Shown here: piece after piece, positions 36,858 through 63,813 of the stretch
How the letters are laid out: every line of letters starts with the position of its first letter
Position numbering within the stretch: the first letter of the stretch is position 1
Virus record (IMG/VR): IMGVR_UViG_3300049979_000188
DNA length: 64,000 nt
DNA from: a virus
Reading direction: 5' to 3' (one strand)
Translations under genes and position numbers: made by a program
Notes under the pieces: model-generated
Told to the model about the DNA's origin: nothing
Databases searched by the model: none
What the model saw: only the letters and a program-made list of their open reading frames with translations

Positions 36858-37943
36858 ATGAACCAGTCTCCCCTGCACCAGGTAAAGGCCAGCATTTTTA
36901 CGCCCAAGGGCGTACTTGCCACCGACAACTTCCCCTACGACGAGGCTACCTACGGGGCCGTTGGCACGGACTCGGCCGAGTTGATTCAACTCTTCCACGC
37001 CCCGGCCGCTAACCCCATGCGCCAGTACCTGCACGTGGCCGTGCTCGACGGGGCCACGAAGGAAATACTGTCCGAGATTGGCGAGCTGCCGGCCGTAAAG
37101 CGTGACCGTGCCGGTAACATTAAGCCCGGCTACGGGCGTATTTCCCCCCACTTGGTGGGCATGACCGATACGCCCGGCTTTAAGCGGAACCTCAGTGCCG
37201 AGGTACGCCGTCACACCCGTGACTTGACGGGCAAGGAGCTCAAGTACTTCCTGCAAGGGGTACTGATTAAGGGTACCTTCGACCGCGACCTTATGCAGCA
37301 GGTGATTGTGGACGCTATTCTCTACTATGCCCAGCCCGGCAAGGAAGTACTGGCCATTGAGGAAGGGGGCAAGCAAATGAGCTACTACCTGGGCATCAAG
37401 GCCAATAACATCTACGTGGACTACAAGCGTCACCAGAACGCCTACAAGCGCGGCAGTGGCAACGTGGTGAGCATCGACGCGCTGGCCGAGCGCGTAGAGG
37501 GGGCCACCGACGTGCTCGGTTTTCTGGCCGGGTCGGATTCAGCCGACATGCTCGACCTGGATGCACAGGTACTACGCCAGGCTATCTTCGGCGTGCTGGC
37601 TGATAAGCCCGACAAGCTGCGGCTTTTTGAGCTGCACCTGGAAGGGCTGAGCCCGGCGCAGATTACCGTGGCCCTGGGCTGGGGTGAGGCGGACGAGAAC
37701 GGCAAGGTAGACAGCGGCCGCGCCCGCAAGTCGCTGCTGGATACACTCACCCTGCTTAAAAAGCGTCTACCGGCCCTGGCTGGGCAGCGTCCCCGGGCCA
37801 GCGCGCAGTGGGGCGAAGGTAGCGGCGAGAGTCGGGCCACGCGTCACCTGAGCAGCGCCGACTGCGAGATGGCCGCCCTGGCCCTGGAAGGGCCGGTGAG
37901 CTTCCGCGAGCGCAAACGCCTCAAAGTAGGGGCCGCCGTTTAA
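36858..37943 (+). CDS. ECF-like sigma-70 family sigma factor with N- and C-terminal extensions
   Basis: Region-2-like DLMQQVIVDAILYY...SYYLGIKANNIYVDYKR; region-4-like LRQAIFGVLADKPDKLRLFELHLEGLSPAQITVALGW...GRARKSLLDTLTLLKKRL. Confidence 0.75.
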   Translation: MNQSPLHQVKASIFTPKGVLATDNFPYDEATYGAVGTDSAELIQLFHAPAANPMRQYLHVAVLDGATKEILSEIGELPAVKRDRAGNIKPGYGRISPHLVGMTDTPGFKRNLSAEVRRHTRDLTGKELKYFLQGVLIKGTFDRDLMQQVIVDAILYYAQPGKEVLAIEEGGKQMSYYLGIKANNIYVDYKRHQNAYKRGSGNVVSIDALAERVEGATDVLGFLAGSDSADMLDLDAQVLRQAIFGVLADKPDKLRLFELHLEGLSPAQITVALGWGEADENGKVDSGRARKSLLDTLTLLKKRLPALAGQRPRASAQWGEGSGESRATRHLSSADCEMAALALEGPVSFRERKRLKVGAAV

Positions 37944-38067
37944 CTTACGAAAAACCCTGGCTCAAAAAAAGTCAGGGTTTTTTACGCCTCAGCGTAACCT
38001 TTCCTCCGGGCTGGGCGTAAAAGGACATGTAAGCGGCAACGGAGCGGCTTACCTTACTCCTGCTGCA

Positions 38068-38406
38068 ATGGCTAAAGCTGCACAACCTAAATTTTTCACG
38101 CGTAGGGCGGCTGTCAACCCGGGCTTGCCTACTGCTAAACGCCACGTAGACTACCTGGTTAAAGCCGCCACTCAGGCACGGGCACTGGCCTTACTGGAGC
38201 TGGTTAAAGTCCCTGGGCGCGGGCATAGTCTATATTATACCAACGCCCGTGAGTTTCGACTCTACTGGGTTACGCGCTCGACTGCGGAGGCCGATGCATC
38301 CATGCTTGAGTTGAGCTGTGATGCGCTCGAAGGTATCTGGTGGAAGCCGGATATGGACCCGGACAGTGAGTATGTGTGCCTGTGGTATACTCCCATTACG
38401 GAATAA
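38068..38406 (+). CDS. Cassette hypothetical protein
   Basis: ORF directly after promoter plus hairpin. Confidence 0.75.
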   Translation: MAKAAQPKFFTRRAAVNPGLPTAKRHVDYLVKAATQARALALLELVKVPGRGHSLYYTNAREFRLYWVTRSTAEADASMLELSCDALEGIWWKPDMDPDSEYVCLWYTPITE

Positions 38407-38425
38407 ACATCCTTCGCTTACTCTT

Positions 38426-38944
38426 ATGCAAGACCCGAATTTTCAAACCCACACACTGGCTGATAATAATCAAACCCTGGGCGCGCTGCGTAAGCTGCTC
38501 AATGAGCTAGCTGAGAAAGACCCATCCCTGGATGAGCTTAAGCTATGGCAAGGGACGGACTCGGGTGAGGGCTACCTGCGCCTGTGTACGGTTACGGTGG
38601 CCAACGCCCGCCACGTAGACTACGACGGCGACGATGCCGATGATGAAATGTTCTGCGTAGAGCCCGACGAGGAAGGACACCGGGAGGCTGATATGGGGCC
38701 TGGCTACGTACACCGAGAGCTTGACCGCCAGGGGAACCTTAACGGTTATAAGAACGTGCTGGTGCTCGGCGACCACCGCACCCCGCTTGACATTGCGCAG
38801 GCAATCACCAGCGAGCAGGAACGCCTGGCGAAACAAGCAGCTGAAAAAGAAGCGAAGGCCAAACGTGAGGCGCTTAAAAACGACCCCGAGTACCAACGCC
38901 TGCAAAAAGAGGCCAAGGAAGCACGTAAAAAATATGGTCTGTAA
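38426..38944 (+). CDS. Hypothetical protein with C-terminal coiled coil
   Basis: Start moved to MQDPNF. Confidence 0.7.
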   Translation: MQDPNFQTHTLADNNQTLGALRKLLNELAEKDPSLDELKLWQGTDSGEGYLRLCTVTVANARHVDYDGDDADDEMFCVEPDEEGHREADMGPGYVHRELDRQGNLNGYKNVLVLGDHRTPLDIAQAITSEQERLAKQAAEKEAKAKREALKNDPEYQRLQKEAKEARKKYGL

Positions 38945-39003
38945 GTGTAACCTTTTCCCAGGGACCTGCGTAAAAGAACTCAGAAACCAACCTCCCCTTT
39001 CTC

Positions 39004-39396
39004 ATGGCCAAGCACCTGGAACCCGTCCCCTACGAATCGTTAATCGGCAAACGCGTGCGCGTCTACCGCAACCTGCACAACTACGGCGGGGAGCACAAGG
39101 TCTTGTACTCGGTGCAGCACAAAGGGCTCGTGATTGCCCACGTACCGCAAATTACCCTGGATGAGGTGAGCTTCTCAGTGCAGCCCGCTGGCCAGGCCAA
39201 GGTACGCCAAACCAAACGCAAGCAGGTCCACGCCTTTGTCAACGGAGTCGTGGCGGCACCCGGTCACGCCCTGGTGCGCAAGGTGAGCTACAACCCGTAT
39301 CAGACCGATACCTTCGTGCTGGCCGGGCCGCTGGGCCAGGTGCCCGTGCTCGCGGCCGGGCGCATCAACATTACCCAGGTCGGGCTTTTTATTTAA
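39004..39396 (+). CDS. Conserved phage hypothetical protein
   Basis: RVRVYRNLH...F.VQPAGQAKVRQTKRKQVHAFV motif recurrent in phages. Confidence 0.75.
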   Translation: MAKHLEPVPYESLIGKRVRVYRNLHNYGGEHKVLYSVQHKGLVIAHVPQITLDEVSFSVQPAGQAKVRQTKRKQVHAFVNGVVAAPGHALVRKVSYNPYQTDTFVLAGPLGQVPVLAAGRINITQVGLFI

Positions 39397-39487
39397 AAAA
39401 AGATTGCCCCGGCGTGTAACCTTACCGCCGGGGCCTGCGTAAAAGAACCATCAACGGCAACGGAGCCGGGTCTCAGCTACTTTCTTC

Positions 39488-40387
39488 ATGTCTACTACCA
39501 CGCAGCTTAAGCAGCTACAAGCTGAAATTGCGCTCTTACAAAATGTGCGTAACTCGACTGAATACGTAGCATTAGAAGCAGAAATCCAGCAGCTACAAGG
39601 CCGCCTAAGGCAGGCAAAGCAGAATTACCAGGCAAGCGTAGCCGATGAAATTGCGGCCAAGGAATCGGACATTAAGGCCCTTAAGATGCAGCAGCTTCGG
39701 GAAACCAATCCGGCTTTCCAATACTCCATACCGCTATTAAGTTGGTTTAACCGGTGGGGACGTGGCATAGATTGGGGTCAGGGTGGGGTTCGCCTGCGCT
39801 GGGTATCCCCGAATCAAAACTGGGTGATTATCACCGCAGGTGGCGGTACGGCTGGACAAGGCACCCCAATGGGTACGGGTGCCTACTACTATGCGGCGGC
39901 GACGCACTATCTTTACCGGGTAGTAGATGGAGCTACGCACATGAACTCCACGTCCAAATATCAGTTTTCCTTTGAGGGGCGGTTACTCAAGGCTACGAAA
40001 GAGGAATGGATAGCCTTTGCCCTCATCCAGGACGAGGGTTGCCCCTTCACGGAGAACCTGGACCGTTCAACACATGGCGGCTACCGGGTTGGAGACTACG
40101 TCTTTAACGAGATGCGTAGAACCTACGGTTTCATTTGGGAGCTGAATAACTACCAACATAAGCCCACGGTTAGCTTCCGCGATGACCCATATTATAACCG
40201 TCCTATCGGCTACCCACTGGAACGAGTTGAAACGGTCCTACGCCTGGCTAAGCGCGTAGAGGAAATGGACTATCAAGGGATGTTTGACCTCGTCTCACCC
40301 GATGACAACCCGGCTAACCAGGCGCTGCGAGAAGTCCCCCCGACCTCTCCCCTACCCGACAAGAGCCTGGAAGGGTTTTTACTATAA
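39488..40387 (+). CDS. Cassette hypothetical protein
   Basis: 299 aa, N-terminal coiled coil. Confidence 0.75.
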   Translation: MSTTTQLKQLQAEIALLQNVRNSTEYVALEAEIQQLQGRLRQAKQNYQASVADEIAAKESDIKALKMQQLRETNPAFQYSIPLLSWFNRWGRGIDWGQGGVRLRWVSPNQNWVIITAGGGTAGQGTPMGTGAYYYAAATHYLYRVVDGATHMNSTSKYQFSFEGRLLKATKEEWIAFALIQDEGCPFTENLDRSTHGGYRVGDYVFNEMRRTYGFIWELNNYQHKPTVSFRDDPYYNRPIGYPLERVETVLRLAKRVEEMDYQGMFDLVSPDDNPANQALREVPPTSPLPDKSLEGFLL

Positions 40388-40485
40388 GGAGCAAAAGAAT
40401 TTTTATTTTTACGTAACCTTTCCCGCCAGCCCGGCGTAAAAGGACCAGCAACGGCAACGGAGCCGGGGCTTAACCAACCAGTATC

Positions 40486-41274
40486 ATGCGTACGATTGAA
40501 GAGGCAATTGCCAACCTGCTAAAAGAGAATACGGGTAGCCCAATGGGTGACCATGCTGGCTACGCGGGCGGGCGACACTGGGAGAAAAACCAGGGTCGTA
40601 ACTTTGCCTCGCAGCCCAGCTTTGTGGTGGAGGGCTACACCCGTGGGGAAACGGACGAGGCAGGCTGGGCACCCATTCAAAACAGTGACCTGGGCTTTAC
40701 CATCAATGTCTATCACTACTTGGTTAGCCGGCTGCGGGTGACTTCGGAAAGTGAAAACGAAAATGCCCTGCTGCAAACCCTGCTGCAAGCGGACCCCGAC
40801 GACTTGTACGAAATCGGCTACATGCAGCAGTTTGCCACCAGCCGCAACACGGATACGGATAACTACTGCATCTGGCTGAGCCCGCTCAACACCTACAACG
40901 GCGAGTGCCTGCTGAGCCAGACGCTGCAATTCAGCATCTACGACCACGAGGGCACCAGCTTTATCGTGCTACAAATCCACGGCGGGGCCGACGTGCGCGG
41001 TGGCTATACCACGCCCCAGGTATTCGAGATTGCCAATGACGAGCGCGATGGGTTCGTGACGGGCTATATCGGCGTAGACGCTACGGCTCAGGTAGACGGC
41101 GAAACCGTACGCTGGAACTCGGAGAGCGGCTACGGCGGCTCGTTTAGGGCCGTAGACGACTCGGACGACGTGGAGGTACCCGAACTGGAACTTGAATGGC
41201 ACGCCGAAACCAACACCTTCCGCCTGGCCCAAACCCACGAGGCCGTAAGCTTCTACCCCGAGTATAGCCTCTAA
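40486..41274 (+). CDS. Cassette hypothetical protein
   Basis: 262 aa; IHGGADVRGGYT motif. Confidence 0.75.
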   Translation: MRTIEEAIANLLKENTGSPMGDHAGYAGGRHWEKNQGRNFASQPSFVVEGYTRGETDEAGWAPIQNSDLGFTINVYHYLVSRLRVTSESENENALLQTLLQADPDDLYEIGYMQQFATSRNTDTDNYCIWLSPLNTYNGECLLSQTLQFSIYDHEGTSFIVLQIHGGADVRGGYTTPQVFEIANDERDGFVTGYIGVDATAQVDGETVRWNSESGYGGSFRAVDDSDDVEVPELELEWHAETNTFRLAQTHEAVSFYPEYSL

Positions 41275-41400
41275 GCTACTAAAAAACCCTGACCCTAAAA
41301 AAGTCAGGGTTTTTTTCTATGAAGATGTAACCTTTCCCAGGGCTCTGCGTAAAAGGACATGTAAGCAGCAACGGAGCTGCTCACGCTAAAGACCCTTACC

Positions 41401-41928
41401 ATGTCTCACATCATTCGCTACCGCATTAGCCCGGCCCACTTGCTAGCTGAACAAGCTTATAGCGCCACCTACCAAGGCAGACAACATGAACTGGCTACTG
41501 AAGTAAACCCGGCTTACCCACTGCTGGCTATTGGCTCGGGGGATACACCCGAGGATGCATACCAGTCGGCAGTTGGCCAAATCGACGGCATGGAGGATGC
41601 CCAAGGCGAGCATTTTGCTTATTCAAAACTACCCAAAGCTGGGCCTAAACGTATCGTAGGTAAAAACGAACTGCTGTCTCCCGAAGAAGCCGTAGCAACG
41701 CAATATTTTGTCTTGATTCGTTTCGCCTTGAGTGGGGGTGACGAAACGGAAAAGTCATATACGGTTAAGGTGCGCTTGACTGGGGGTCGTTGGAGCCGGT
41801 TTGCCTGGCGCATTGCTAAAGAAAAGGTAGAGGATGCGCTGGCGCATTTACGTAAGACGCTCGGACCCCACGAGACGAAGGTGCTCGAAATAAAAGGCCC
41901 CGTGCTTGAACGTCCTACGTGGTACTAA
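41401..41928 (+). CDS. Cassette hypothetical protein
   Basis: 175 aa after cassette. Confidence 0.75.
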   Translation: MSHIIRYRISPAHLLAEQAYSATYQGRQHELATEVNPAYPLLAIGSGDTPEDAYQSAVGQIDGMEDAQGEHFAYSKLPKAGPKRIVGKNELLSPEEAVATQYFVLIRFALSGGDETEKSYTVKVRLTGGRWSRFAWRIAKEKVEDALAHLRKTLGPHETKVLEIKGPVLERPTWY

Positions 41929-42019
41929 TTTTTTTCACTTGAAACGTAACCTTTCTCCCAGCTCCGCGTAAAAGGACATGTAAAGCGCAACGGAGCACTT
42001 TACGCTAACGACCCCTACC

Positions 42020-42784
42020 ATGAAAAGCATTGAGAAGTACAAGTTCAGTGGCCTGACCATCAAAATCAAACAGGACACGGACCCCAGCAACCCGCGCAAA
42101 GAGTTTGACAACGTGGGCACACTGGTATGCTGGCACCGCAATTATGAGCTGGGCGACGAGCCCGAGTTTGGTGGGGGCCGCCGGGGTTTGCCGAGCCTGG
42201 ACGCGGGTGAGTACCGCCTGGCGATGGCCGAAGTATACGACCCCGGCATTAGCGACTGGACGGATACGGCCATGAGCCGGTTGTGGGATAAAGCCCAGGC
42301 CGCTTCGAGCAGCAGCATTGGCGTGCTCACCGATGCCGAAATGCGGGCATACGAGCTAGCGGAGTTGGAACTGCGCCAGCGGGTAGGGGAGCGGGTGCAG
42401 CGCGTACTGGATACGCACTACATCGTGCTGCCGGTCTACCTCTACGACCATTCCGGCCTGGCCATGCGGGTAGCTGACTTTGGGGACCGTTGGGACTCGG
42501 GCCAGGTGGGCTTTATCTACTGCACCCGTGAGAAGGCCCTGCGCGAATGGGGCAACGGCGGGCTGGTGCTGAGTAAGAAACGCCGCCAGCAAGCCGTTAC
42601 CTACCTGACGGGGGAAATCGAGACGTACCACGAGTACCTCAGCGGGCAGGTATACGGCTACGAAATCAAGCGCAAGGGCGAAGGCGTGATTGACTCGTGC
42701 TGGGGCTTCTACGGCGGGGTAGACTACGTGAAAACCGAAGCCGAAGCAGCGGCTGCCTGCCTGGTAGAAACCGTTGAAGCATAA
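42020..42784 (+). CDS. Conserved phage/mobile-element hypothetical protein
   Basis: LPVYLYDHSG...WDSGQVGFIY...YLSGQVYGY...DSCWGFYG. Confidence 0.8.
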   Translation: MKSIEKYKFSGLTIKIKQDTDPSNPRKEFDNVGTLVCWHRNYELGDEPEFGGGRRGLPSLDAGEYRLAMAEVYDPGISDWTDTAMSRLWDKAQAASSSSIGVLTDAEMRAYELAELELRQRVGERVQRVLDTHYIVLPVYLYDHSGLAMRVADFGDRWDSGQVGFIYCTREKALREWGNGGLVLSKKRRQQAVTYLTGEIETYHEYLSGQVYGYEIKRKGEGVIDSCWGFYGGVDYVKTEAEAAAACLVETVEA

Positions 42785-42890
42785 GGGCAATGGACCCCGC
42801 CCTAACCAGCGGGGTCTTTTTTTTGTTATTTTGTAACCTTTTCCCAGGGCTCGCCGTAAAAGGACTATCAACCAACTACTCACCCCTACC

Positions 42891-43349
42891 ATGCAAGTAA
42901 CTACCACCGCCACACTGTGTGTCTTTCGTGATGCCCGAGGTAACGTGCAGACCCGTGTACTAGCTGACTTCTACGACAACATCTGCCTAGATGGCTACGA
43001 TGCCCAAGGTGTCCGCCAGTCGTATGACGACGAGGCCCGCCACATTGGGGAATGGCTTGAAAAGCACCCCAGCCTGAACTACAAGAGCCAGGAGATAGCC
43101 GTTGTGGCCGACGTGAAGCTGCCCCGTCGGTTTGCCGATGGGGCCCTGGTGCAGCACCACGGGCTGGACGTGACGGTGATAAACTACCAAGAGGAAGCGG
43201 AGCAGTACGTGGTGGAAGTACCCGCTTATGAGGTATTCGATTTTACGGTAAAACTCAAGAACGGTCAGCCGCGCCCGGTACTGCGCGTGGAGCCAGCCAG
43301 TCAATACAAAGCACCCGAGGCCGAGCTTAACTACCCTGAAAAATACTAG
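42891..43349 (+). CDS. Cassette hypothetical protein
   Basis: 152 aa. Confidence 0.75.
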   Translation: MQVTTTATLCVFRDARGNVQTRVLADFYDNICLDGYDAQGVRQSYDDEARHIGEWLEKHPSLNYKSQEIAVVADVKLPRRFADGALVQHHGLDVTVINYQEEAEQYVVEVPAYEVFDFTVKLKNGQPRPVLRVEPASQYKAPEAELNYPEKY

Positions 43350-43441
43350 TAAAATTACGGCGAGCCTTGTAACCTTTCCCCAGGGCTCGCCGTAAAAGGA
43401 CTATCAACGGCAACGGAGCCGCTTAACTAACCCCCGCTAGT

Positions 43442-44266
43442 ATGTACACCATCCAGCAACTCACCCTCGACCAGCAAAGCCAGGCCGGTGGGCGTCAAGT
43501 ACGCGTCACCTTTGCCAACGGCCAGACCTATACCGTAGCCGATGCGGGCGGGGACTACTGCTTCCAGAACCTAGCGTACTCGCTCACGGCCGAGACGCTC
43601 AACGAGAACACGGCCTTGCGCGAGGCCCTTACGGCCGTGGGTGAGTTTTACCGCTTCTGGCTCAGCGGCAACGAGGACCCGATGGTGCTCATGCTGCGCA
43701 AGGATACCCCGGTGCTGCACGAGCTCTACGAAAGCGAGGAAACGAATAACACGCCGGAGCAAGCGGCGGACCCTGCGCCTGGCAAAGACTATCCGTACGC
43801 CCTGGCTTGTTCTATCTTCACCACGCATAAAGACCCTGATTTGGTGGAGCGGGCACTCATTTACGAAGATGATGCGGTAGCCTTATTACGCGCAATCCGC
43901 CAGGCCGGGCTCTCGGATGCGCTTCCCGTCATCCTTGGCACGGGGGCTGAGTCGATTGAGCTAAGCATGAATGAGAAAGGGTTCTACTTCCTGACCCAAG
44001 TAGATACTACGCCTGATTCGGAGGACAAGCTTTACGCCGATGTACGGCGCTTTTGGCTGCGCCGCAAGACCGAGCCCGTGCAAGACGTGATAACGCTGGA
44101 AATTGGCGAATTTGCCGCCCTGGTGAACCGCATTAGCAAACTACGTGGCACACGCTCGTATCACCCCGGTGAAGATATTGAGCTTCCCATTGCGGGCGTC
44201 TTCCTAGTCAAGCGCGAGCACGCGGTAAACACCAAGCCCAAGCTCTACCGCACCGGCTTGATTTAA
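43442..44266 (+). CDS. Cassette hypothetical protein
   Basis: 274 aa. Confidence 0.75.
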   Translation: MYTIQQLTLDQQSQAGGRQVRVTFANGQTYTVADAGGDYCFQNLAYSLTAETLNENTALREALTAVGEFYRFWLSGNEDPMVLMLRKDTPVLHELYESEETNNTPEQAADPAPGKDYPYALACSIFTTHKDPDLVERALIYEDDAVALLRAIRQAGLSDALPVILGTGAESIELSMNEKGFYFLTQVDTTPDSEDKLYADVRRFWLRRKTEPVQDVITLEIGEFAALVNRISKLRGTRSYHPGEDIELPIAGVFLVKREHAVNTKPKLYRTGLI

Positions 44267-44390
44267 GTAGTGAAACCCTGACTCCTAAAAAAAGTCAGGG
44301 TTTTTTTCTGTAAAGTTGTAACCTTCTCCCCGAGCCTGTCGTAAAAGGACATGTAAAGCGCAACGGAGCACTTTACTAACCCTAAGCGGT

Positions 44391-44900
44391 ATGTTTAACG
44401 TTAGAACCACCACCCTGGCCAAGCGCACCCGTAATGTACTGGCCCACCTGCCGGGCTACCAGCGCCGCCAGCGCTTCGACATTACGCTGGACCTGCACCA
44501 AATCGGTGAGCAGTCCCCCTACTTCTCGGCCACGGTGAGCGGCCGCTCCTTCGGGGGCTGCAACCACGAGCTCATCCTCCGGCACTGGCCCCAGGCTAAA
44601 TGCATCGTGGACCTGCACTTGTGCGACATGGACGGGGCACCCATGCACACGGAGGCCAACGCCCTCTACCACGCCCAGGCCTACCTCCACCAGCAAAAGG
44701 CCCATTACCCAGCCGCCAAGGGGCTCGACTACCTGGCTTCGCACCTACGCATCAGCCAGGACCAGGCCCTGGACCTACTGGCTGACCTGGTAGACAAAAC
44801 CCCCGACGTGCAGGCCCTGCTCATGAAGGCCTTTTGCGACCAGCAGCGCCCCCGCTGGCAGCAGGAGGCTGACCAGGCCCTGGCCTTCCTCAACGCCTAA
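44391..44900 (+). CDS. Conserved phage hypothetical protein
   Basis: PYFSAT...GGCNHE.I..HWP....VDLHLCD.DGAPMH..ANALYH. Confidence 0.75.
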   Translation: MFNVRTTTLAKRTRNVLAHLPGYQRRQRFDITLDLHQIGEQSPYFSATVSGRSFGGCNHELILRHWPQAKCIVDLHLCDMDGAPMHTEANALYHAQAYLHQQKAHYPAAKGLDYLASHLRISQDQALDLLADLVDKTPDVQALLMKAFCDQQRPRWQQEADQALAFLNA

Positions 44901-45001
44901 ATCAAGTGCCCAGGCGTAAAAAACCTGGGCTTTTTTTCCCAAAAACCCTAACCTTTTCGCCGAGACGGGCGTAAAAGGACTCAGAAACCAACCACACCCC
45001 C

Positions 45002-55487: not shown

Positions 55488-55608
55488 ACCCAAAAAACCC
55501 CAGCTAAAAAAGTTGGGGTTTTTTTGCGTCTCAGCGTAACCTTTGCTCAGGGCTCCCCGTATAAACCTCAGAACGCAGGCAACGGAGCCTGGGTTAACCC
55601 CTACTACC

Positions 55609-55938: not shown

Positions 55939-56057
55939 CCAGCCTAATCTACTAAAAACCCCAACTTTTTTAGTTGGGGTTTTTTTCACCCTTAACGTAA
56001 CCTTTTCCCAGGGACCTGCGTAAAAGGACTCAGAAACCAACCCCCCCCTTTCTTTTT

Positions 56058-56807
56058 ATGAGCTACATTGCTTGCACCCCCCAGCTACTGCCAGCCCTGG
56101 CCCCCACCTCGATTGGCCTGCTCGTCGGCGACAGCGCCGTACATAGCATTGAGGCCGAGGCCCTCGGTACGACGGGCTGCATTTACCAGCACGTATACCT
56201 GCTGAGTGAGCGCCCCATCAACTCGGGCAATGTGTACTTCGACAAGGCCAAGCAGCAGGTGCTCGTGGCCCCTGAGATGGGCGCGGGCTACTTCAACCGC
56301 TACCCCGGTGACTACATCCGCGTGGAGGCCAGCACCGACCCCTCCCTGGGCCTGCCCGTGGTAAATGATACGGTCCTGGCCGCCTACGTAAAGGGCGCAA
56401 AATCAAGTCAAACGCAATTTCGCGTTTACCCTGGCACCCTGCCGGGTAGCGTGCCCGTGGTGGGCGTACGGATGCGCGAGTACACGGGCACGCTCTACAA
56501 CACGGACCAGGAGCCCCGCGCCCTTACCCTGGCCGAGCTCATCGAGGTAGGCGTGGGCCAGGTTGGGTCCACTATGGCGGCTTCTGCGTTCGGCTCGGGC
56601 TACCTGCTCAACGACGGCAAGAAAAGCGCGCACCACTTCTACTCCGCGCCCGACTGGGCCATCTACGGCACCAATGAATGGGTACCCAATGAGGCGGGCC
56701 GCCTGGCGGTAAACGCTGTAATGGGTAAAGAGCACTACAAAGGGGGCGAAGATTACCTGCCCGGCTCGATTATTATTTACAAACGAGAAGATTTTGTGGT
56801 CTTCTAA
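56058..56807 (+). CDS. Cassette hypothetical protein
   Basis: 249 aa. Confidence 0.75.
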   Translation: MSYIACTPQLLPALAPTSIGLLVGDSAVHSIEAEALGTTGCIYQHVYLLSERPINSGNVYFDKAKQQVLVAPEMGAGYFNRYPGDYIRVEASTDPSLGLPVVNDTVLAAYVKGAKSSQTQFRVYPGTLPGSVPVVGVRMREYTGTLYNTDQEPRALTLAELIEVGVGQVGSTMAASAFGSGYLLNDGKKSAHHFYSAPDWAIYGTNEWVPNEAGRLAVNAVMGKEHYKGGEDYLPGSIIIYKREDFVVF

Positions 56808-56878
56808 CGTAACCTTTCTCCCTGCCCTGCGTAAAAGGATTTACAAACGGTAACGGAGCCGTTTGTAAATCCTTTTTT

Positions 56879-57211
56879 ATGAAGACCTACCCTATCGAAG
56901 AAGAAGCACGAGTTGATTTTGAAGTGGCTAATGCACTTGAGTCAGTGGGCTACCCCTACCGCTATGCCAGTGAAGTTCCACTTAATATCCCAACCCTGAA
57001 TGCGGCACAGCGTTGGCTACGTATTGCGCGTGACCAGCACATGGAAGTAGAATACACTGGGGATGGTTTTACCGTATCGGTACTTGGCAGCCAGTTTGGC
57101 CGCCTCTATGAGAATACGCAAAAGCCTAACAATCCAACCCGGTTTGCTACGTACGAGGACGGCCAGCGGGCTGGGGTATTGGAAATGATTAAATTAATTT
57201 CCCCCAAATAA
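56879..57211 (+). CDS. Cassette hypothetical protein
   Basis: 110 aa. Confidence 0.7.
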   Translation: MKTYPIEEEARVDFEVANALESVGYPYRYASEVPLNIPTLNAAQRWLRIARDQHMEVEYTGDGFTVSVLGSQFGRLYENTQKPNNPTRFATYEDGQRAGVLEMIKLISPK

Positions 57212-57287
57212 CGCAACCTTTCTCCCAGGCCCGCGTAAAAGGACATGTAGCCGGTAACGGAGCCGGCTACACAACTTCTCCCCTACC

Positions 57288-57620
57288 ATGCATACGCAAG
57301 ACCAAAAGACGCAAGCCTTAAACGCGGCGGTCAATTCTTTCTCGGCCAAACCGGAGAGCACTGCAACCGAAGCAATGGGCGAGCTTGCCCAGCATACGTT
57401 CGAGGCTGGCTACGCCCTGGGTCGCACGCCCGAGCGCGAGTTCACCGCCGACGAGCTCTATAAGATTCAACAGGTTCTTTTCGACCTGCGGTGGAACTGG
57501 GGCAGCTTCGCCCAAACAATGGGGCAACTGCTGCGAGCCGGTGACAGCAGCACTCGCCAGAAGCTGGCCAAGGGGTTCCCCCACGAGTTCAGCGCCTGGC
57601 TCGAAATGGCCAGACGGTAA
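57288..57620 (+). CDS. Cassette hypothetical protein
   Basis: 110 aa; GSFAQTMG.L...GD....KL.KGFP motif. Confidence 0.7.
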   Translation: MHTQDQKTQALNAAVNSFSAKPESTATEAMGELAQHTFEAGYALGRTPEREFTADELYKIQQVLFDLRWNWGSFAQTMGQLLRAGDSSTRQKLAKGFPHEFSAWLEMARR

Positions 57621-57726
57621 GCAAAAGACCCCGTCGCCTAACGGGGTCTTTTTTTTTTAGCTACTAGTGTAACCTTTCTCCGGGCTCTGCGTAAAAGGAC
57701 TCAGAAACCACCTAACCACTTTCGCC

Positions 57727-58014
57727 ATGAACGAGCACGCAACCCCCGACCTGACTAGTACGCGCATTGGCCAGGAACTACCCCTGCGGCACTTGCAAGG
57801 GGACGAGTACACCTACATCCAGAACGAGCAGGAGCTCGCCGCTACCGTAGCTGACGTGAGCGAAGACGTGCTGGCTAAGCACATCAAGGCCTACGAGAAT
57901 GATACCATCACTGGGGCAATGGTGAAGGTGGGTGAGGGCTGGTACGACCAAATCTGGCTCACCACGGATAGCGCGCCCTATCATTTAGCCTCACTTTATA
58001 CCCGCGCCCTGTAA
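57727..58014 (+). CDS. Cassette hypothetical protein
   Basis: 95 aa; stop within -35 element. Confidence 0.7.
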   Translation: MNEHATPDLTSTRIGQELPLRHLQGDEYTYIQNEQELAATVADVSEDVLAKHIKAYENDTITGAMVKVGEGWYDQIWLTTDSAPYHLASLYTRAL

Positions 58015-58118
58015 CCCACCCGGTTCTTTTTACGTATACAGACCATAACCAACCCGCCCGTGTTTCTTTCGAGAGGCACGGGCCGGCTTGTCAGTACCCA
58101 CTTCATTTTCTTACTGAC

Positions 58119-58415
58119 ATGACCGACCAACTCCAACTCCTGACCCTTGTACCGCGCCAGTTTTACCTGCGCGAAGACACCCGCTACGCCTACGGCAAAG
58201 ACGGGAGCGACCGCGAGCCCCTCACGCCCCAGCAGGCCCAGGAGCGCGTGCAAGAGGCCCTGCTGGCCCAGGACGTGAGCCTGCAAGACGTGGCCCCGTT
58301 CCTGGGTGCGCTGCTGGTGGGCACGCCCGCCGAGCTCCTGCTGGAAGAGTCCTACCCCCGCGCCAGCTGCGACTGCTGCAACGACCATGTAAAAGTTTTT
58401 TTGGTTGTGGTGTAA
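58119..58415 (+). CDS. Hypothetical protein with CDCC motif
   Basis: 98 aa; SCDCCNDH. Confidence 0.65.
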   Translation: MTDQLQLLTLVPRQFYLREDTRYAYGKDGSDREPLTPQQAQERVQEALLAQDVSLQDVAPFLGALLVGTPAELLLEESYPRASCDCCNDHVKVFLVVV

Positions 58416-58485
58416 CCTTCTGCTAAGGTTAACCGTAAAAGACCGTATACCGAGCAACGGAGCTCGGTATACGAGCCTTACTACT

Positions 58486-58776
58486 ATGCAAGCTGAGACT
58501 ATTTTAGTAACCCCCGCACACTGGACGCTGAGTAATCTAAATGGGGTGACAACAATGGCGGATTTTAACCGTCGCCAGAAAAACGATAAATCCCCCCGTA
58601 TTCTTCGGCAAGGGACTAAGCAAGCCCGCACTAGCGGTTACGTTAGCTGGTTACGCAAAGCAACTGAGTCTGGTAAGATTGAGCTCTTACTATGGGTGGG
58701 TGCCACTAAAATGCAAGCAGTCCATAACGCGCGTCTCAGCGGCGAACCCGCCAAACAGGGTTATTCTGTAAAATAA
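58486..58776 (+). CDS. Cassette hypothetical protein
   Basis: Start moved to MQAET. Confidence 0.65.
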   Translation: MQAETILVTPAHWTLSNLNGVTTMADFNRRQKNDKSPRILRQGTKQARTSGYVSWLRKATESGKIELLLWVGATKMQAVHNARLSGEPAKQGYSVK

Positions 58777-58867
58777 AAAGTTTTTTCACTAAACGCAACT
58801 TTCTCCGAGGGCTCTGCGTAAAAGGACACATAAAGGGCAACGGAGCCCCTCGCAAACCTTCCCTACC

Positions 58868-59443
58868 ATGCAAGCTGTTATCACGAACGCGCTGCTTCAG
58901 AACGCCCGTCAACTCAACGGGATGCAGGACGAGCGCACAACTAGCGCCATCATCCCCACCCTCGACGGCACCTACCTCATCGAGGTAGTAGGCTGGGTGA
59001 TGCTGCAAAAAGTTACGGCCGGCCGCTACCGCCTCGTTATTCAGCGCGGCACGGCTTACTTCTACAAGCCGAAAGGAAGCAAGCTCATCGTGGCCCACCA
59101 CGAGAGCGTCGTGCGGATGGCCAACGGCCGGGCTGGCGACCTTAACGGCATCAATTACCTGGGCGTAGGTAACGAGACTACCCAGGCCGCCCTGGATGCC
59201 AGCCAGCCCGAGCTGAGCCTGGGTGCGTGCTACGATATTGCGGTAACTTTTGAGCCCGGTAGCCAGCACCAAAACTACGTTATTCGCCAGCAGATAAGCA
59301 ACGTAGATAACGAGGCGAAGGAATATGAGGTTACGGTTCTTTCGCCCGTTCCTGAACCAGGCAAGGTAGTGACCGTGCGCCGCAGCTTTTACAAGCTCCA
59401 CCGCCAGGTGCGCGAAGATACCCGCCTGACCCTGGTCGGCTAA
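58868..59443 (+). CDS. Cassette hypothetical protein
   Basis: 191 aa. Confidence 0.75.
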   Translation: MQAVITNALLQNARQLNGMQDERTTSAIIPTLDGTYLIEVVGWVMLQKVTAGRYRLVIQRGTAYFYKPKGSKLIVAHHESVVRMANGRAGDLNGINYLGVGNETTQAALDASQPELSLGACYDIAVTFEPGSQHQNYVIRQQISNVDNEAKEYEVTVLSPVPEPGKVVTVRRSFYKLHRQVREDTRLTLVG

Positions 59444-59559
59444 TTAGATGGACCCTGACAGGAGATTGTCAGGGTCCATTTATTTTTTCGTAAACTTGTA
59501 ACCTTTGACTCCTCACCCTCGTAAAAGGAGGCAGAAACCAACTAACCCCTTTTCTTCTC

Positions 59560-60015
59560 ATGGATACCTTACTCGCTGCTGCCCCCACCGCCACTAGTTC
59601 TAACGCCGAGGCTACCTTGCAAGAGGGCCTACGCTGGCTGCGTCACCACAATATTCCTTACTACAACGCCCAGCCAGGGAAGGTAGCGCTGCTGGGGGAT
59701 AACGAGGTAAATGCGCAGCCGCTGGTGGGGCGGTTCGGTCCGTTGCGCTGCCACCAACTCACGGTAGTCGAGGCGGCTACCGGCCTGCCCCTGACTGTTA
59801 CCAGCGGCACCCAGCTGTTGGCGCTGGCCGTGGACCTGACCCGGCCCCAGCCGCGTATCCTGGTGGATGCCTTGACCCCGCAGGGCCGTAAACGCGAGCT
59901 GCTGCTCACGGCTCGCCAGGCCGACCTGGCCCGGGGCGAGGACACCAACCATTCGCTGCTGGCCGACGTGCTGGCCCGGCTGCGTGCCCTGCAAAAAGTT
60001 CGCGTTAGTCGCTAA
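59560..60015 (+). CDS. Cassette hypothetical protein
   Basis: 151 aa. Confidence 0.7.
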   Translation: MDTLLAAAPTATSSNAEATLQEGLRWLRHHNIPYYNAQPGKVALLGDNEVNAQPLVGRFGPLRCHQLTVVEAATGLPLTVTSGTQLLALAVDLTRPQPRILVDALTPQGRKRELLLTARQADLARGEDTNHSLLADVLARLRALQKVRVSR

Positions 60016-60124
60016 CCACGAAAAACCCTAACTAAAAAAAGTTAGGGTTTTTTTGGCTACCTTTGTAACCTTTCTGCGAGCCCTGCGTAAAAGGAGGCAG
60101 AAACCAACCAACCCCGCTAACTTT

Positions 60125-60412
60125 ATGTGCACCGAAACCCTGAACACCCCCAAGTGGATTACCACCGATAGTGACACCCGGCAAAAAGGCCGCCAGCTCG
60201 GGCCTGGGGTGTATGAGTTTAAGGAGCGGCGCAACGGCCAGAAGTTTCGCCGCACGGTGGTGCTGGCCGACTACTCTACCGAGCGCCAGGAATACTATAT
60301 CAGCGCCTACTACGGCTCCCTGGCGAAGTTGCGCGCTGAGTTCCCCGAGCCGGAAGATGCCGACTGGTTGCTGGCTGAATGTATTTTTGAGCAATTGAGC
60401 TATTATTCGTAA
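60125..60412 (+). CDS. Conserved phage hypothetical protein
   Basis: WITTDSDTRQ.GRQL....YEF...YISAYYGSL...LAECIFE; stop within -35 element. Confidence 0.7.
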   Translation: MCTETLNTPKWITTDSDTRQKGRQLGPGVYEFKERRNGQKFRRTVVLADYSTERQEYYISAYYGSLAKLRAEFPEPEDADWLLAECIFEQLSYYS

Positions 60413-60465
60413 CCTTTTCCCAGGGCTCGGCGTAAAAGGAGGCAGAAACCAACCCCTTACTTCCA

Positions 60466-60774
60466 ATGGAAAAGAAACTTGTATCCTGGGCCACATTCAG
60501 TAAGCAGGATGGGAAACACCTCCCGCGCAAACGGCGTGGCGACTGTGCGGGCTTTGGCGGAGTAGACGTGGTAGACCCTACTTTACGGGCGGCTGGTTAT
60601 AGTCGTCGTTCGGAAGATGGTATACTGGGCTTTGATAAACCTAAAACACTCGCAAATCAACTCTTTAAAGAGTTTAGTGATGAGATAAATGGTATAGCTG
60701 TTTATCACGTAGCTCGCCACCGGGCCGATATGGATGGTTTTACGCTCAATCTTTATTTTCTTAAAAATGCTTGA
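60466..60774 (+). CDS. Cassette hypothetical protein
   Basis: 102 aa. Confidence 0.65.
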   Translation: MEKKLVSWATFSKQDGKHLPRKRRGDCAGFGGVDVVDPTLRAAGYSRRSEDGILGFDKPKTLANQLFKEFSDEINGIAVYHVARHRADMDGFTLNLYFLKNA

Positions 60775-61069
60775 CTTCACCCCCAGCACCCTGGCCCGCT
60801 TGCACAAGCAGCGCCCCAGCACCGGCAACACCCTTACTCACTCGGTGCCCCTGGGCCTGGGTAAGGCGCTCGTAAAAGGCGAGAAAAACGGCCTCTGTAA
60901 TCGCAGCGCCTGCTTGAAGCCGGGCGCTACCTTTCGCCACATCGGCAATGGCCTCTACTACTGCCCCGAGTGTGCGGGGCTCATCAATTACCCCGGTGGC
61001 CAGGCCGACGCGCAGCGCCTCTTCGGCCGGCCCCTACTGTGCATGGTAGACCCTGAAGACGCAAAATAA
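60767..61069 (+). CDS. Putative zinc-finger protein
   Basis: CNRSAC...YYCPECAGLIN. Confidence 0.65.
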   Translation: MLDFTPSTLARLHKQRPSTGNTLTHSVPLGLGKALVKGEKNGLCNRSACLKPGATFRHIGNGLYYCPECAGLINYPGGQADAQRLFGRPLLCMVDPEDAK

Positions 61070-61157
61070 TTTTACGTAAAGCTGTAACCTTATCTGAGCG
61101 AGCTGCGTAAAAGGACACATACCGGGCAACGGAGCCCAGTACTACTACTCTCCCCAC

Positions 61158-61583
61158 ATGGTTAAGTTAACTGACACTGTACTTAAAAACCAGGCGGCTT
61201 TCCTGCTCAATACCAGCAGCAAAAACATCTACCTGGCCGCCGTACCCGCCGATGGTGACCCGGGTGCTCTGCACTACCAGGGGCAGGTCTACGAGTTCCA
61301 ACTCGACTACAAGGGCATCGTGCCCGACAGCTTGGTAAACACCGGCCGGGCCACGGTTACGATTGTGGTGAAGCGTGACTGGCTCGACGGTCGGGCCACG
61401 GCACAGGAGCTGTGCATCTTTTACGGCACGGGCACCCCGGCTGACAGCACGCTCTGGCCCGAGCAGTGGAAGCAGGTACGCACCAGCCTCAATTATTGGG
61501 AGTGGGTAGCCAAGGAGTTGCGCCTGCGCCGCGAGTACCGCGAGCGCGTCCTGCTCGACTACCCCGACATGTTTACCAAATAA
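61158..61583 (+). CDS. Cassette hypothetical protein
   Basis: 141 aa. Confidence 0.7.
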   Translation: MVKLTDTVLKNQAAFLLNTSSKNIYLAAVPADGDPGALHYQGQVYEFQLDYKGIVPDSLVNTGRATVTIVVKRDWLDGRATAQELCIFYGTGTPADSTLWPEQWKQVRTSLNYWEWVAKELRLRREYRERVLLDYPDMFTK

Positions 61584-61682
61584 ACGTAAAATAATCGGCA
61601 GCAAGTGTAACCTTGCTGCCGAGTCCTGCGTAAAAGGACCATGAAGCGCAACGGAGCGCTTCACTTTACCCCTCCTACTCTT

Positions 61683-62069
61683 ATGGAATACAATGGCACC
61701 CACTACGGCGCAATGTTCAGCGTCTTTCAGGGCTACGTCGCGCAGCAAGCTGACCAACGCAAAAACATGGAGGATGCCTTGGTCTCCTACTTGAAAAGTG
61801 CTGAGGTGACCCGGTTCCTGGTCAGCGATGGCAACGAGCCCTGCCTGGTGGAAGTTATCCAGAATGCCCACCTCAACCCGCCCGTACTGGAAAAAGACGG
61901 CCAGCTGCACTTTATCAGCACCCAGGGGCTGCACACGGCTCAGGGCCTCAAGCCGTTGCGTTGTTTCACGGATGCCGAACTACTAGCCGTCGGTGCGTAC
62001 GTGCAGCAGTGGTATCGTTACCACTACTTTGGCTACCACCAGCCCAACCCCTTTCCCAGCGCCGAATAA
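61683..62069 (+). CDS. Cassette hypothetical protein
   Basis: Start moved to MEYNG (track start lies inside the leader hairpin). Confidence 0.7.
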   Translation: MEYNGTHYGAMFSVFQGYVAQQADQRKNMEDALVSYLKSAEVTRFLVSDGNEPCLVEVIQNAHLNPPVLEKDGQLHFISTQGLHTAQGLKPLRCFTDAELLAVGAYVQQWYRYHYFGYHQPNPFPSAE

Positions 62070-62166
62070 AAAAACCTCGGGGGAACGTAACACTTCCCCC
62101 GAGCCCTGCGTATACTACCTTACCAACCGGGCACCAATGCCCACTTAACCCCCCACACCCCCTTTT

Positions 62167-62586
62167 ATGGCTGTATCAGATGTAGCCTCCGTTCTCGCCA
62201 CCCTGCAAAGCTTCGGCTTTAGCGGTAAATTCCAGGCCGATGGCACCCTGGGGTTCAACCTGGCCAGCCTGGCCACCGATGAGCTCAGCAAACTGCTGGC
62301 CTTTCGCCGTAGCTACGGCCACCCCATCGCCCTCAAGCGTAGCGGCACCGGCCTGCGGGTGAGCTTCACGCCCGGCGTGGAGCCGGTAAATCAACAGGCG
62401 GTAAACTTGGAGTTCACCAAGATTATCGAGCAGGAAAAACGCCTCAGCCCTACTGGCCAGGGCTACAATGTACACACTCTCAACGACCCCGAGTTTGTGG
62501 CCCTGGTAGACTACCAGAACTACAAGGATAAGCCCGTTACGCTCAAGCGTAGCGGCACCGGCCTGCGGGTTACGGTGGGCAACTAA
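62167..62586 (+). CDS. Protein built of two tandem ~70-aa domains
   Basis: LKRSGTGLRV twice; identical 29-bp DNA at 62332-62360 and 62542-62570. Confidence 0.75.
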   Translation: MAVSDVASVLATLQSFGFSGKFQADGTLGFNLASLATDELSKLLAFRRSYGHPIALKRSGTGLRVSFTPGVEPVNQQAVNLEFTKIIEQEKRLSPTGQGYNVHTLNDPEFVALVDYQNYKDKPVTLKRSGTGLRVTVGN

Positions 62587-62708
62587 GCAAGAAAACCCTG
62601 ACCCTAAAAAGTCAGGGTTTTTTTATAACTCTACGTAACCTTTCCCCCGGGCTCTGCGTAAAAGGACTATAATCGGCAACGGAGCCGACTACTATTTCCC
62701 TCCGCCTC

Positions 62709-63101
62709 ATGGATTTTTCGTATCAGCACCTGGCCAACGCTTACGCCCTGTTCAACAACTACACCCAGCAAGAATACGAGCAGCGCCGCAGCATTGTTGA
62801 TGCCATTGCCGGGGGCGTGCGCACCGAGCGGCTGGCCCCCTACCTGGAAAACGGGTTGCTCTCGGTGAGCCTGCTGCACGAAAAGGCCCGGTTCTTTTTG
62901 ACGGATAAGAAGCTGCTCGATTTTGGCAAGCCAGCCGAGGTGCTGGCCATTGGCGAGGACCGGGTGTATACGCCCATTGGCTACCTGAGTATGGAAAACC
63001 TCAGCAACCAAGATTTGGTGGCCGTGGCCGGGTGGGTACAGAAGATTTACGTGGATATTGAAATTGGCGAACAGGTTGGCCAGCGCACTCGTCCCAGCTA
63101 A
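62709..63101 (+). CDS. Cassette hypothetical protein
   Basis: 130 aa. Confidence 0.7.
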   Translation: MDFSYQHLANAYALFNNYTQQEYEQRRSIVDAIAGGVRTERLAPYLENGLLSVSLLHEKARFFLTDKKLLDFGKPAEVLAIGEDRVYTPIGYLSMENLSNQDLVAVAGWVQKIYVDIEIGEQVGQRTRPS

Positions 63102-63191
63102 TTTATTTTTCGTAAACTTGTAACCTTTACCCGACACCCACGTAAAAGGATACATAACCGGCAACGGAGTCGGTTAGTCAACTTCCCTCCC

Positions 63192-63515
63192 ATGTTAGAG
63201 TTAACCAAGCAAGCCCTGCTGAGTCGCATTTTGGGCAGTCCCCTGCGTCTTCGTAAAGCCACCCGCTTTCGCCGTAACCAGCTCAAGAACCTGGCCCGCC
63301 GCAAGGGCTACCGCCTGCTGCGCGTCTACACCCGGCACATCGGCTGGATTTACCGCATCGAAATCCTGCCCTATCCCGGTAACGGGGAAAAGTTAATCCG
63401 CACCTACGACTACTGCAAAACCCAGGCCGCTACGGCCGCTGAGCGCCTGGCCCTGCACCTGCTGGGAAAACCCGACATTAGCTGGAAACGTAAAAAAAAG
63501 CTAGTTTCGTTGTAA
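63192..63515 (+). CDS. Basic cassette hypothetical protein
   Basis: 107 aa, R/K-rich; stop within -35 element. Confidence 0.7.
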   Translation: MLELTKQALLSRILGSPLRLRKATRFRRNQLKNLARRKGYRLLRVYTRHIGWIYRIEILPYPGNGEKLIRTYDYCKTQAATAAERLALHLLGKPDISWKRKKKLVSL

Positions 63516-63587
63516 CCTTTCACAAACTACTCCCGTATAAAGTATCAGAAAGCCAGGCAACGGAGCCTGGCTTAACTTTCTAGTCCC

Positions 63588-63728
63588 ATGCTAACTGTAA
63601 GCAAAAAAACACGTAAGCGCCTTAACGCACAAGATAAACGCACCCTGGCTATGCTCGAAGCGGTGATAAACCCCAGCCAGGAAGTACTAGAGCACATTGC
63701 GACGCTCAAAAAAGAACAGAAAGACTAA
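63588..63728 (+). CDS. Small hypothetical protein (46 aa)
   Basis: MLTVSKKTRKRLNAQDKRTLAMLEAVINPSQEVLEHIATLKKEQKD directly after cassette; below track cutoff. Confidence 0.6.
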   Translation: MLTVSKKTRKRLNAQDKRTLAMLEAVINPSQEVLEHIATLKKEQKD

Positions 63729-63813
63729 AAGTTGCGTAACCTTTTCCCTACCCCTCACGTACAATAGACATCTCCCCGGCAACGGAGCCGGGGAGCTTTC
63801 CTCCCCATTGGTT

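Follow-up and report, generated by a model that had tools for sequence, protein, structure and literature searches.

A predicted sigma factor of extracytoplasmic function type and two promoter dialects in an uncultured jumbo phage

The 64,000-nucleotide (nt) stretch of DNA analyzed here, referred to as the window, comes from IMG/VR record IMGVR_UViG_3300049979_000188 and belongs to an uncultured jumbo phage with a genome of ~203 kb. It encodes a 361-amino-acid (aa) protein, P0001, which is very probably a sigma-70-family protein of the two-domain extracytoplasmic function (ECF, group 4) type, and it carries a dense set of ECF-shaped promoter sites in two dialects, class A and class B. Judging from the sequence, we favor the reading that P0001 recognizes class B, with class A served by something else or left open, and assign it a probability of roughly 0.58. 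A preliminary description of this DNA had proposed that this one sigma drives essentially all transcription in the window. That is not established: as the promoters fall into two dialects, which fit two specificities at least equally well, a single sigma for all of them is probably not the correct picture.

The motif GTAAC-N16/17-CGTA[A/T/G]A occurs 60 times in the window, compared with 0.15 expected from the mean of 100 dinucleotide-preserving shuffles of the window (shuffle maximum, 2). The 14 strict matches on the minus strand all lie within 953-33517, and the 46 on the plus strand all lie within 33660-63539. The predicted genes and long open reading frames (ORFs) switch from leftward to rightward at ~33.55 kb. 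As gene direction flips where site strand does, every promoter site points with its genes, and the preliminary claim to this effect was borne out for 60 of 60 strict copies. Admitting one-base variants (CTAAC or GCAAC, CGTT) gave 51 rightward sites (42 class B and 9 class A) and 13 to 16 leftward sites, in line with the at least 50 plus 15 reported previously. The ECF-type motif proposed there also agrees with the promoter shape, with AAC at -35 and CGT at -10, 16 to 17 nt apart. Promoters of the cognate AAC/CGT type expected for an ECF sigma are present at the 60 strict sites; which sigma reads them we infer below. The sites are mostly intergenic, with CGT 12 to 58 nt from the start codon, and there is about one promoter per gene in the right arm and about one per four genes in the left arm. 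No excess of Escherichia coli-type sigma70 promoters was detected in the window (7 versus 8.1 expected).

In anchored logos, the sites separated cleanly into two discrete classes (class A, n = 22; class B, n = 42). The class A consensus is GTAAC[g/a]-N17-CGTA[A/T/G]AC(T), found at 13 leftward sites, 6 rightward sites at 33660-36287, and 3 sites in the right arm. The class B consensus is GTAACCTTT-N12/13-CGTAAAAGGAC, with a -10 region reading CGTAAAAGGAc, and its 42 sites are all rightward, at 36795-63736. The promoters are as follows.

37994-63763, plus strand: class B array of 41 sites (42 with P2, described below), consensus GTAACCTTT-N12/13-CGTAAAAGGAC
37994, 38947, 39416, 40413, 41327, 41946, 42833, 43369, 44318, 44948, 45820, 46610, 47176, 47661, plus strand: class B -35 starts, first part
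48193, 48805, 49550, 50296, 50848, 51183, 51932, 53205, 53704, 54243, 54843, 55536, 55997, 56809, plus strand: class B -35 starts, middle part
57213, 57669, 58412, 58795, 59498, 60065, 60409, 61084, 61607, 62635, 63120, 63512, 63736, plus strand: class B -35 starts, last part
33660, 34388, 34765, 35112, 36035, 36287, plus strand: six class A promoters, GTAAC-N17-CGTA[T/G]ACT, within 33660-36314
48650, 58011, 62087, plus strand: three class A promoters inside the array
980, 2994, 7180, 9723, 10872, 12112, 13183, 15005, 17226, 19390, 23232, 28068, 33517, minus strand: -35 starts of 13 class A promoters, GTAAC-N17-CGTA[A/T/G]AC(T), within 953-33517
5932, 7529, 22523, minus strand: three looser leftward sites

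The two classes differ in the -35-proximal T-tract, which is absent from class A, in the bases that follow CGTA, and in spacer tolerance. Class A uses a 17-nt spacer throughout (22 of 22 sites); in class B the spacer is 17 nt in 31 of 42 sites and 16 nt in the other 11, a difference in the use of the shorter spacer (0/22 versus 11/42) that is significant by Fisher's test (p = 0.011). Paralogous ECF sigmas of Bacillus overlap in their core motifs, and a T-tract next to the -35 modulates which of them uses a promoter (PMC5758882); the differences between classes A and B resemble by analogy those that separate such paralogs. Most class B promoters lie 10 to 15 nt past the T-run of a terminator-like module composed of an A-run, a stem and a T-run, and most are 35 to 58 nt ahead of a start codon. 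The resulting cassettes are insulated by terminators and mostly contain a single gene for a small protein. The ten largest proteins of the class B array did not match any Pfam family.

The sigma gene lies at the left edge of this array, and the 361-aa ORF of the preliminary description is present there as stated. Its parts and control elements are as follows.

36698-36728, plus strand: P1, TTG-N20-TAGCTTTG, a promoter of the host type (Bacteroidota sigma-A) ahead of the sigma gene
36795-36825, plus strand: P2, class B-type promoter GTAAC-N16-CGTTAAAGAC, with a weakened -10
36826-36857, plus strand: CAGAAACCAACC leader after P2
36858-37943, plus strand: gene for the 361-aa ECF-like sigma P0001 (ORF, homolog alignment, predicted fold)
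36858-37178, plus strand: N-terminal extension of P0001, residues 1 to ~107
37176-37457, plus strand: sigma2 of P0001, residues ~107 to 200
Residues 201 to 231, plus strand: linker of P0001
37536-37790, plus strand: sigma4 of P0001, residues ~227 to 311
37791-37940, plus strand: conserved C-terminal tail of P0001, residues 312 to 361
37950-37984, plus strand: intrinsic terminator-like hairpin and T-run closing the sigma gene (sequence inspection)

An exhaustive HMMER search of 1.84 billion representatives recovered eight metagenomic homologs of P0001 (P0002 to P0009; 233 to 312 aa; E values of 6e-58 to 2e-18), which cover P0001 residues ~113 to 356. Pfam Sigma70_ECF or Sigma70_r4_2 was detected in five of the eight (E, 0.003 to 0.14). 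The TIGR02937 sigma70-ECF model matched P0009 (E, 3.9e-5; profile positions 49 to 165) and P0006 (E, 0.0023), and P0009 carries the JGI name sigma24-family protein. Searching the Protein Data Bank (PDB) with the profile of alignment A2, which was built from the P0001 homologs, gave a single match, to region 4 of E. coli sigma-E (E, 0.25), and the language-model neighbors of P0001 include sigma clusters (score, 0.96). By inspection, the invariant family positions D152-A153, Y176-Y177, K181, D188 and R191 fit sigma regions 2.2 to 2.4. As curated hidden Markov model (HMM) thresholds were not reached, P0001 is best described as belonging to a new, divergent sigma family rather than to a catalogued ECF group. 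Word-indexed searches started from P0001, from alignment A2 or from P0009 recovered little beyond the queries themselves, a DNA search of the GenBank phage collection found no relatives and no match at the P0001 gene, and a protein pattern search of IMG/VR found no relatives of P0001. One isolated IMG/VR match to the class B pattern was treated as chance. No paralog of P0001 was found in the window or in related loci, and no sigma-like gene other than that for P0001 was detected in the 64 kb.

Structure prediction, which the preliminary description had set as a check to be made together with the promoter DNA, yielded for the protein a fold that matches sigma2 and sigma4 domains. The AlphaFold2 model built from alignment A2 contains two helical domains, with a predicted local distance difference test (pLDDT) score of 85 to 92 for residues 110 to 200 and of ~83 for residues 240 to 310. 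Residues 200 to 234 form a low-confidence linker without sigma3-like helices. Prediction from the single P0001 sequence gave a mean pLDDT of 33.5. Foldseek matches to the model were nearly all sigma factors, many of the ECF type, with none at E ≤ 0.001. An exhaustive structural aligner gave the following matches (rmsd, root mean square deviation).

Residues 227 to 311: SigL sigma4 (6dv9_F), Z 8.7, rmsd 3.3, 74 residues aligned
Residues 107 to 191: SigC sigma2 (2o7g), Z 5.8, rmsd 3.1, 78 residues aligned
Residues 107 to 191: sigma-E region 2 (2mao), Z 5.3, 91 residues aligned
Both domains: SigB, SigH, WhiG and 9m7y chain F, Z 6.2 to 8.8

Residues 227 to 311 further matched SigD, CnrH, SigW, SigK and region 4 of sigma-E. 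Chain F of 9m7y, a gp79-dependent RNA polymerase promoter open complex, aligned with the P0001 model over 161 residues (Z 6.2); we take this chain to be the phiEco32 gp36 sigma. The sigma call of the preliminary description is supported by the predicted fold of domains 2 and 4 and by weak ECF HMM matches in the homologs.

Two promoters of different types precede the sigma gene. P1 is the only complete plus-strand TTG-N18-21-TAnnTTTG in the window, and also its only intergenic, gene-oriented TAnnTTTG with a TTG 18 to 21 nt upstream. TAnnTTTG is the -7 box of the flavobacterial primary sigma factor, sigma-A (PMC9723704). Judging from its promoters, the sigma gene is the one gene of the window built for reading by unmodified host polymerase. 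The same arrangement is present in seven related contigs (L001, L002, L003, L005/6, L007/8, L009/10 and L011). These contigs, one of them 291.6 kb long, stem from independent samples, range in GC content from 55 to 70%, and between them encode seven of the eight homologs. In the window and all seven contigs (8/8), a TAnnTTTG box with TTG 18 to 21 nt upstream lies ahead of the sigma gene, and in six of these eight, the window included, the box reads TAGCTTTG. In every case the host-type box is located 36 to 75 bp upstream of a class B-type promoter, whose CGT is 32 to 53 nt before the sigma ATG. A count over 125.8 kb of this DNA gave 12 copies of TTG-N18-21-TAnnTTTG (1.7 in shuffles), of which 8 lie at the sigma gene. 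The class B-type promoter that precedes the sigma gene in all eight suggests an autoregulation-type layout. Its -10 has CGTT in place of CGTA in four of eight sequences, and the full CGTAAAAGGAC is found only in L002 (seven of eight deviate). A weakened P2 of this kind would suit restrained positive feedback.

The host of the phage is most likely a Bacteroidota bacterium, as indicated by the TAnnTTTG box, the small number of Shine-Dalgarno cores and the lack of an E. coli-type promoter excess. A Shine-Dalgarno core was found in 5 of 104 genes, and G is depleted ahead of start codons. Both features are as described for Bacteroidetes (PMC6847099).

Sites of this kind also occur in the relatives: L002 has 14 in 11.6 kb, L001 has 4 in 2.7 kb, and L007 has about 20. 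Class A-like promoters extend from the divergence point to the sigma gene in the window and in both L007 and L011, and in all three the GTAACCTT class begins at the gene or right after it. In L002, the GTAACCTT type is likewise present at and after the sigma homolog. The class A sites of L007 read CTAACA in 5 of 5 cases and its class B sites GTAACC, so that the first -35 base is C versus G. In every phage, the class without a T-tract has only 17-nt spacers and the T-tract class has spacers of 16 or 17 nt (L005, L007 and L011 follow the same trend). A general rule by which every array would begin at the sigma gene was considered and rejected, given the layouts of L005 and L002 described below.

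Many class B leaders (window 38029-63795) contain a hairpin whose stem covaries and whose top, GC-AACGGA-GC, is constant, the CGT lying ~50 to 53 nt before the ATG; the remaining leaders have CAGAAACCAACC in its place. In L002 and L007, the hairpin loops are AACGAT, AACGAC or AACGAA. An Rfam scan matched only two tRNAs, with no match for the class B leader hairpin. A further candidate feature, CCTTT/AAAGG as a conserved inverted repeat, was dropped, as it is not kept in L002 or L007.

In the reading favored here, host RNA polymerase with its primary sigma factor would start at P1 and yield the first sigma mRNA. The phage sigma would then bind host core polymerase and, to judge from fold and motif shape, read a GTAAC -35 and a CGTA -10. 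Through P2, which resembles the array promoter in weakened form, it would reinforce itself, and it would fire the ~41 class B promoters that head insulated, mostly single-gene cassettes. The 22 class A promoters may be read by a second phage sigma, or by P0001 with another factor or with different kinetics; we lean toward a second specificity.

Several observations weigh against this reading. The link between the sigma and class B is circumstantial. Hybrid promoters that join a B-type -35 to an A-type -10 exist (window 62087; L005 5088), and in L005 and L002 class B-like promoters lie on both sides of the sigma gene, including upstream. L002 additionally has a third dialect, GTAACATT[A/T]-N-CGTATAAGG, whose 11 copies have the CAGAAACCAACC leader and precede the sigma homolog (383-9163). 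The related contigs are of common ancestry, and therefore finding gene and motif together in them does not count as independent evidence. As for the identity of the protein, P0001 alone gave no match in Pfam (E ≤ 1), PHROG, NCBIfam or PDB sequences, including no sigma model. The HMM matches of its homologs are all under curated cutoffs (Sigma70_ECF, 18.1 versus 21.1 bits; TIGR02937, 23.3 versus 42.9), so that the HMM search proposed in the preliminary description was negative for P0001 itself and positive for the homologs only below these cutoffs. Z scores of 6 to 9 are only moderate for small helical domains, and LuxR-type helix-turn-helix (HTH) domains match the C-terminal (sigma4) domain, though only this domain and with scores (Z 5.5 to 6.9) below those of sigma factors.

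That P0001 reads both classes, with the flanks tuning strength or timing or recruiting a co-factor, is a real though minor possibility. The exact cores GTAAC and CGTA and their spacing are common to both classes, the hybrid promoters connect them, and P0001 is both the only detectable sigma-like gene in the 64 kb and the only gene of the window with a complete host-type promoter. Against this stand the discreteness of the classes, their physical segregation, their unlike spacer tolerance, and the C versus G at the first -35 base in L007; moreover, paralogous ECF sigmas separate near-identical promoters elsewhere (PMC5758882). The assignment could also be swapped, with P0001, expressed from P1 and, via a class B reader, from P2, reading class A and another phage factor reading class B. 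The sigma gene does lie amid class A promoters (33660-36287), and in L007 the most divergent recognition helix (that of P0006) coincides with a changed class A -35, CTAACA, and an unchanged class B, albeit as a single case. We nevertheless consider a swap unlikely, as its own P2 is of the class B type in 8 of 8 contigs, as an autoregulated ECF sigma would have, and as the class B -35 GTAACCTT is conserved as much as the sigma family itself.

It is very unlikely that P0001 is another type of HTH regulator or an inactive sigma relic, with the promoters read by a host ECF sigma or by other phage sigmas located elsewhere on the ~203-kb genome. The lack of an above-threshold sigma HMM match for P0001 and the LuxR-type matches to the C-terminal domain would fit such a protein, and Bacteroidota are rich in ECF sigmas with CGT -10 boxes (PMC9723704). 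However, the N-terminal core domain matches sigma region 2 only (SigC, sigma-E), alignments spanning both domains are to sigma factors, and the positions resembling sigma regions 2.2 to 2.4 (DA, YYL-K-D-R) are invariant across the family. A lytic jumbo phage with more than 60 promoters dependent on a stress-gated host ECF sigma would also be unusual. Finally, the terminator, motif and leader modules are highly uniform, and even the spacers are semiconserved (CCCAGGGCTC, GCCGGGCTCGGGG), as might be expected if the repeats were recombination sites at cassette junctions or a spreading repeat element. This explanation is hardly credible, given two conserved blocks around a spacer of variable sequence and 16 or 17 nt, an orientation strictly with the genes, a position just past terminators and 12 to 58 nt before start codons, and no other promoter type in the window.

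The preliminary description had given P0001 N- and C-terminal extensions of roughly 130 and 50 aa as possible regulatory parts. The C-terminal tail was confirmed, and the N-terminal part was revised to ~105 to 110 aa, as the homologs begin aligning at P0001 residue ~109 to 113. This N-terminal extension is absent from seven of eight homologs. P0009 has a longer N terminus, which shows no significant similarity to the P0001 extension (E, 0.09). The extension has a pLDDT below 50 and no language-model or structural neighbor. It is probably translated, since the leader-to-ATG distance equals that of the relatives. The ~50-aa tail, with the pattern R-x3-4-[HYF]-[LVM]-[ST]-[ST]-x-[ED]-C ... LEG-x-P-x-S, is conserved in eight of nine family members including P0001, the exception being P0006, which lacks it. 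Because of this conservation, the tail appears to be a better candidate for a regulatory part than the N-terminal extension. Five of the nine members (P0002, P0003, P0004, P0005 and P0007) end in LAA, IAA or VAA, and P0001 ends in GAAV. The [L/I/V]AA ends resemble the ClpXP recognition end of ssrA-tagged proteins and of cleaved RseA.

In agreement with the preliminary description, no anti-sigma gene was recognizable next to the sigma gene, which is closed by its terminator; the neighboring ORFs have no Pfam match, and a novel anti-sigma among them is possible. Two genes on the minus strand encode Peptidase_M50 (site-2 protease) proteins (6645-7232, E 5e-5; 7551-8252, E 1.1e-35). In bacteria, site-2 proteases process anti-sigmas and pro-sigma-K. 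A link between the M50 proteases and the N-terminal extension of P0001 is speculation. The giant proteins P0010 (1,744 aa) and P0011 (4,429 aa) match the interdomain linker of P0001 (~200 to 246) in 8 to 11 repeated stretches.

A wider joint picture is tentative, and we doubt that it holds in all of its parts at once. Nearly the whole ~203-kb genome would be transcribed from ECF-shaped promoters by a few very divergent phage sigmas, which would discriminate dialects with the same cores by T-tract, spacer tolerance and post-CGTA bases. P0001 would found a new family, whose conserved C-terminal tail has a ClpXP-like [L/I/V]AA end in five of nine members, and the added ~105-aa N-terminal piece of P0001 could be under proteolytic control, there being two M50 genes in the window.

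The left arm contains tRNAs, homing endonucleases, DUF932 and the M50 peptidases. tRNA-Arg(CCG) and tRNA-Glu(TTC), at 1523-1597 and 2601-2675 on the minus strand, lie downstream of the class A promoters at 2994 and 980. The ORF calls at 977-1543 and 2489-2677 are probably spurious, because they overlap the two tRNAs. Also on the minus strand, at 9792-10796 and 10844-11791, a DUF932 protein gene (E, 9e-55) adjoins a LAGLIDADG endonuclease gene (E, 8e-19). Elsewhere, the window encodes a superinfection exclusion protein resembling P22 gp17, a Phage_L5_gp82 homolog, a protein with a cREC_REC domain and several HNH endonucleases. The related contigs L005 and L007 likewise have DUF932 and L5_gp82 genes. 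The word ACATTGT occurs 13 times in the window versus 4.35 expected, and 12 of the copies cluster at the divergent control region (31483-36137), two of them inside the class A promoter at 34388; further copies lie at the L007 divergence point (5222-5250 and near 6286). These copies could be operators of some regulator, or iterons.

Takeover of transcription by private sigma factors is textbook knowledge for phages of Bacillus and enterobacteria. Bacteroidota differ from the model systems in polymerase, in primary promoters and in translation signals, and to our knowledge such takeover by their phages has hardly been studied. The system described here is a known phage strategy, a private sigma with two-part promoters, at large scale. 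The novelty lies in the sequence family and the Bacteroidota setting, in the two dialects, in the conserved pairing of a host-type with a self-type promoter, and in scale, with about 41 insulated cassettes and no fewer than 64 sites in 64 kb. It offers a readable wiring diagram, leading from a host-type promoter to a phage sigma and on to about 40 near-identical insulated promoters, and a new, very divergent sigma family with eight metagenomic relatives. The ~40 cassettes of single genes for small proteins are flagged as one co-regulated set. The dialects provide a test case for how ECF-type sigmas discriminate among promoters with identical cores, and they could be used as compact, orthogonal parts for expression in Bacteroidota.

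Sigma cascades are well known in large phages, including SPO1 (gp28 and gp33/34) and T4 (gp55). As in these, no phage RNA polymerase is encoded in the stretch seen, and the phage would redirect host core polymerase by its own sigma or sigmas, in temporal classes; the sigma families and promoter shapes differ from those of SPO1 and T4. Sigma factors are common in jumbo phages that lack a polymerase of their own, and sigma genes have been described for group 2 jumbo phages (PMC7824862). The promoters share the AAC -35, CGT(A) -10 and 16- to 17-nt spacer of the Bacillus subtilis ECF sigmas W, X, M and V, and class B has the GTAAC-CTTT...CGTA layout of B. subtilis ECF promoters with a -35-adjacent T-tract (PMC5758882). 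The B. subtilis factors are cellular, about 165 to 190 aa long, and gated by membrane anti-sigmas under stress. In contrast, P0001 is phage borne, has a host-type promoter and extra N- and C-terminal parts, and has no recognizable anti-sigma. Among phage proteins, gp36 of phiEco32, with its helper gp79, is a divergent sigma that diverts host core polymerase to middle and late genes (PMC12276001), and P0001 is likewise a divergent predicted phage sigma. However, gp36 is without region 4 homology and reads a single element, AATGTA (PMC8948821, PMC12276001), whereas P0001 has a predicted sigma4 domain and a bipartite promoter, and no gp79-like partner was identified. gp36 is a more distant analog than the closest described system, SaPh711_gp47 of Salmonella phage 7-11. 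The gp47 sigma has a region 4, is nearest to sigma24 proteins, and with host core polymerase reads eight late promoters, GTAAtg-N16-aCTA, transcription starting 6 to 9 bp downstream; early genes are transcribed via host sigma70 (PMC8948821). P0001 gave no PHROG match, its gene no DNA match in the phage database, and sequence searches of the PDB no match to the sigma chain of 9m7y; the likeness to gp36 is a fold-level alignment and that to gp47 is by description. P0001 and gp47 have in common regions 2 and 4, predicted in P0001, and bipartite promoters, with core binding of P0001 suggested by its fold and the motif shape. Phage 7-11 is an enterobacterial podovirus of the 7-11/phiEco32 type with eight promoters; the phage described here is a Bacteroidota-type phage of ~203 kb with at least 64 sites in 64 kb, a CGTA -10, two promoter dialects, and a sigma family that is without a match to catalogued families and has a conserved 50-aa C-terminal tail.

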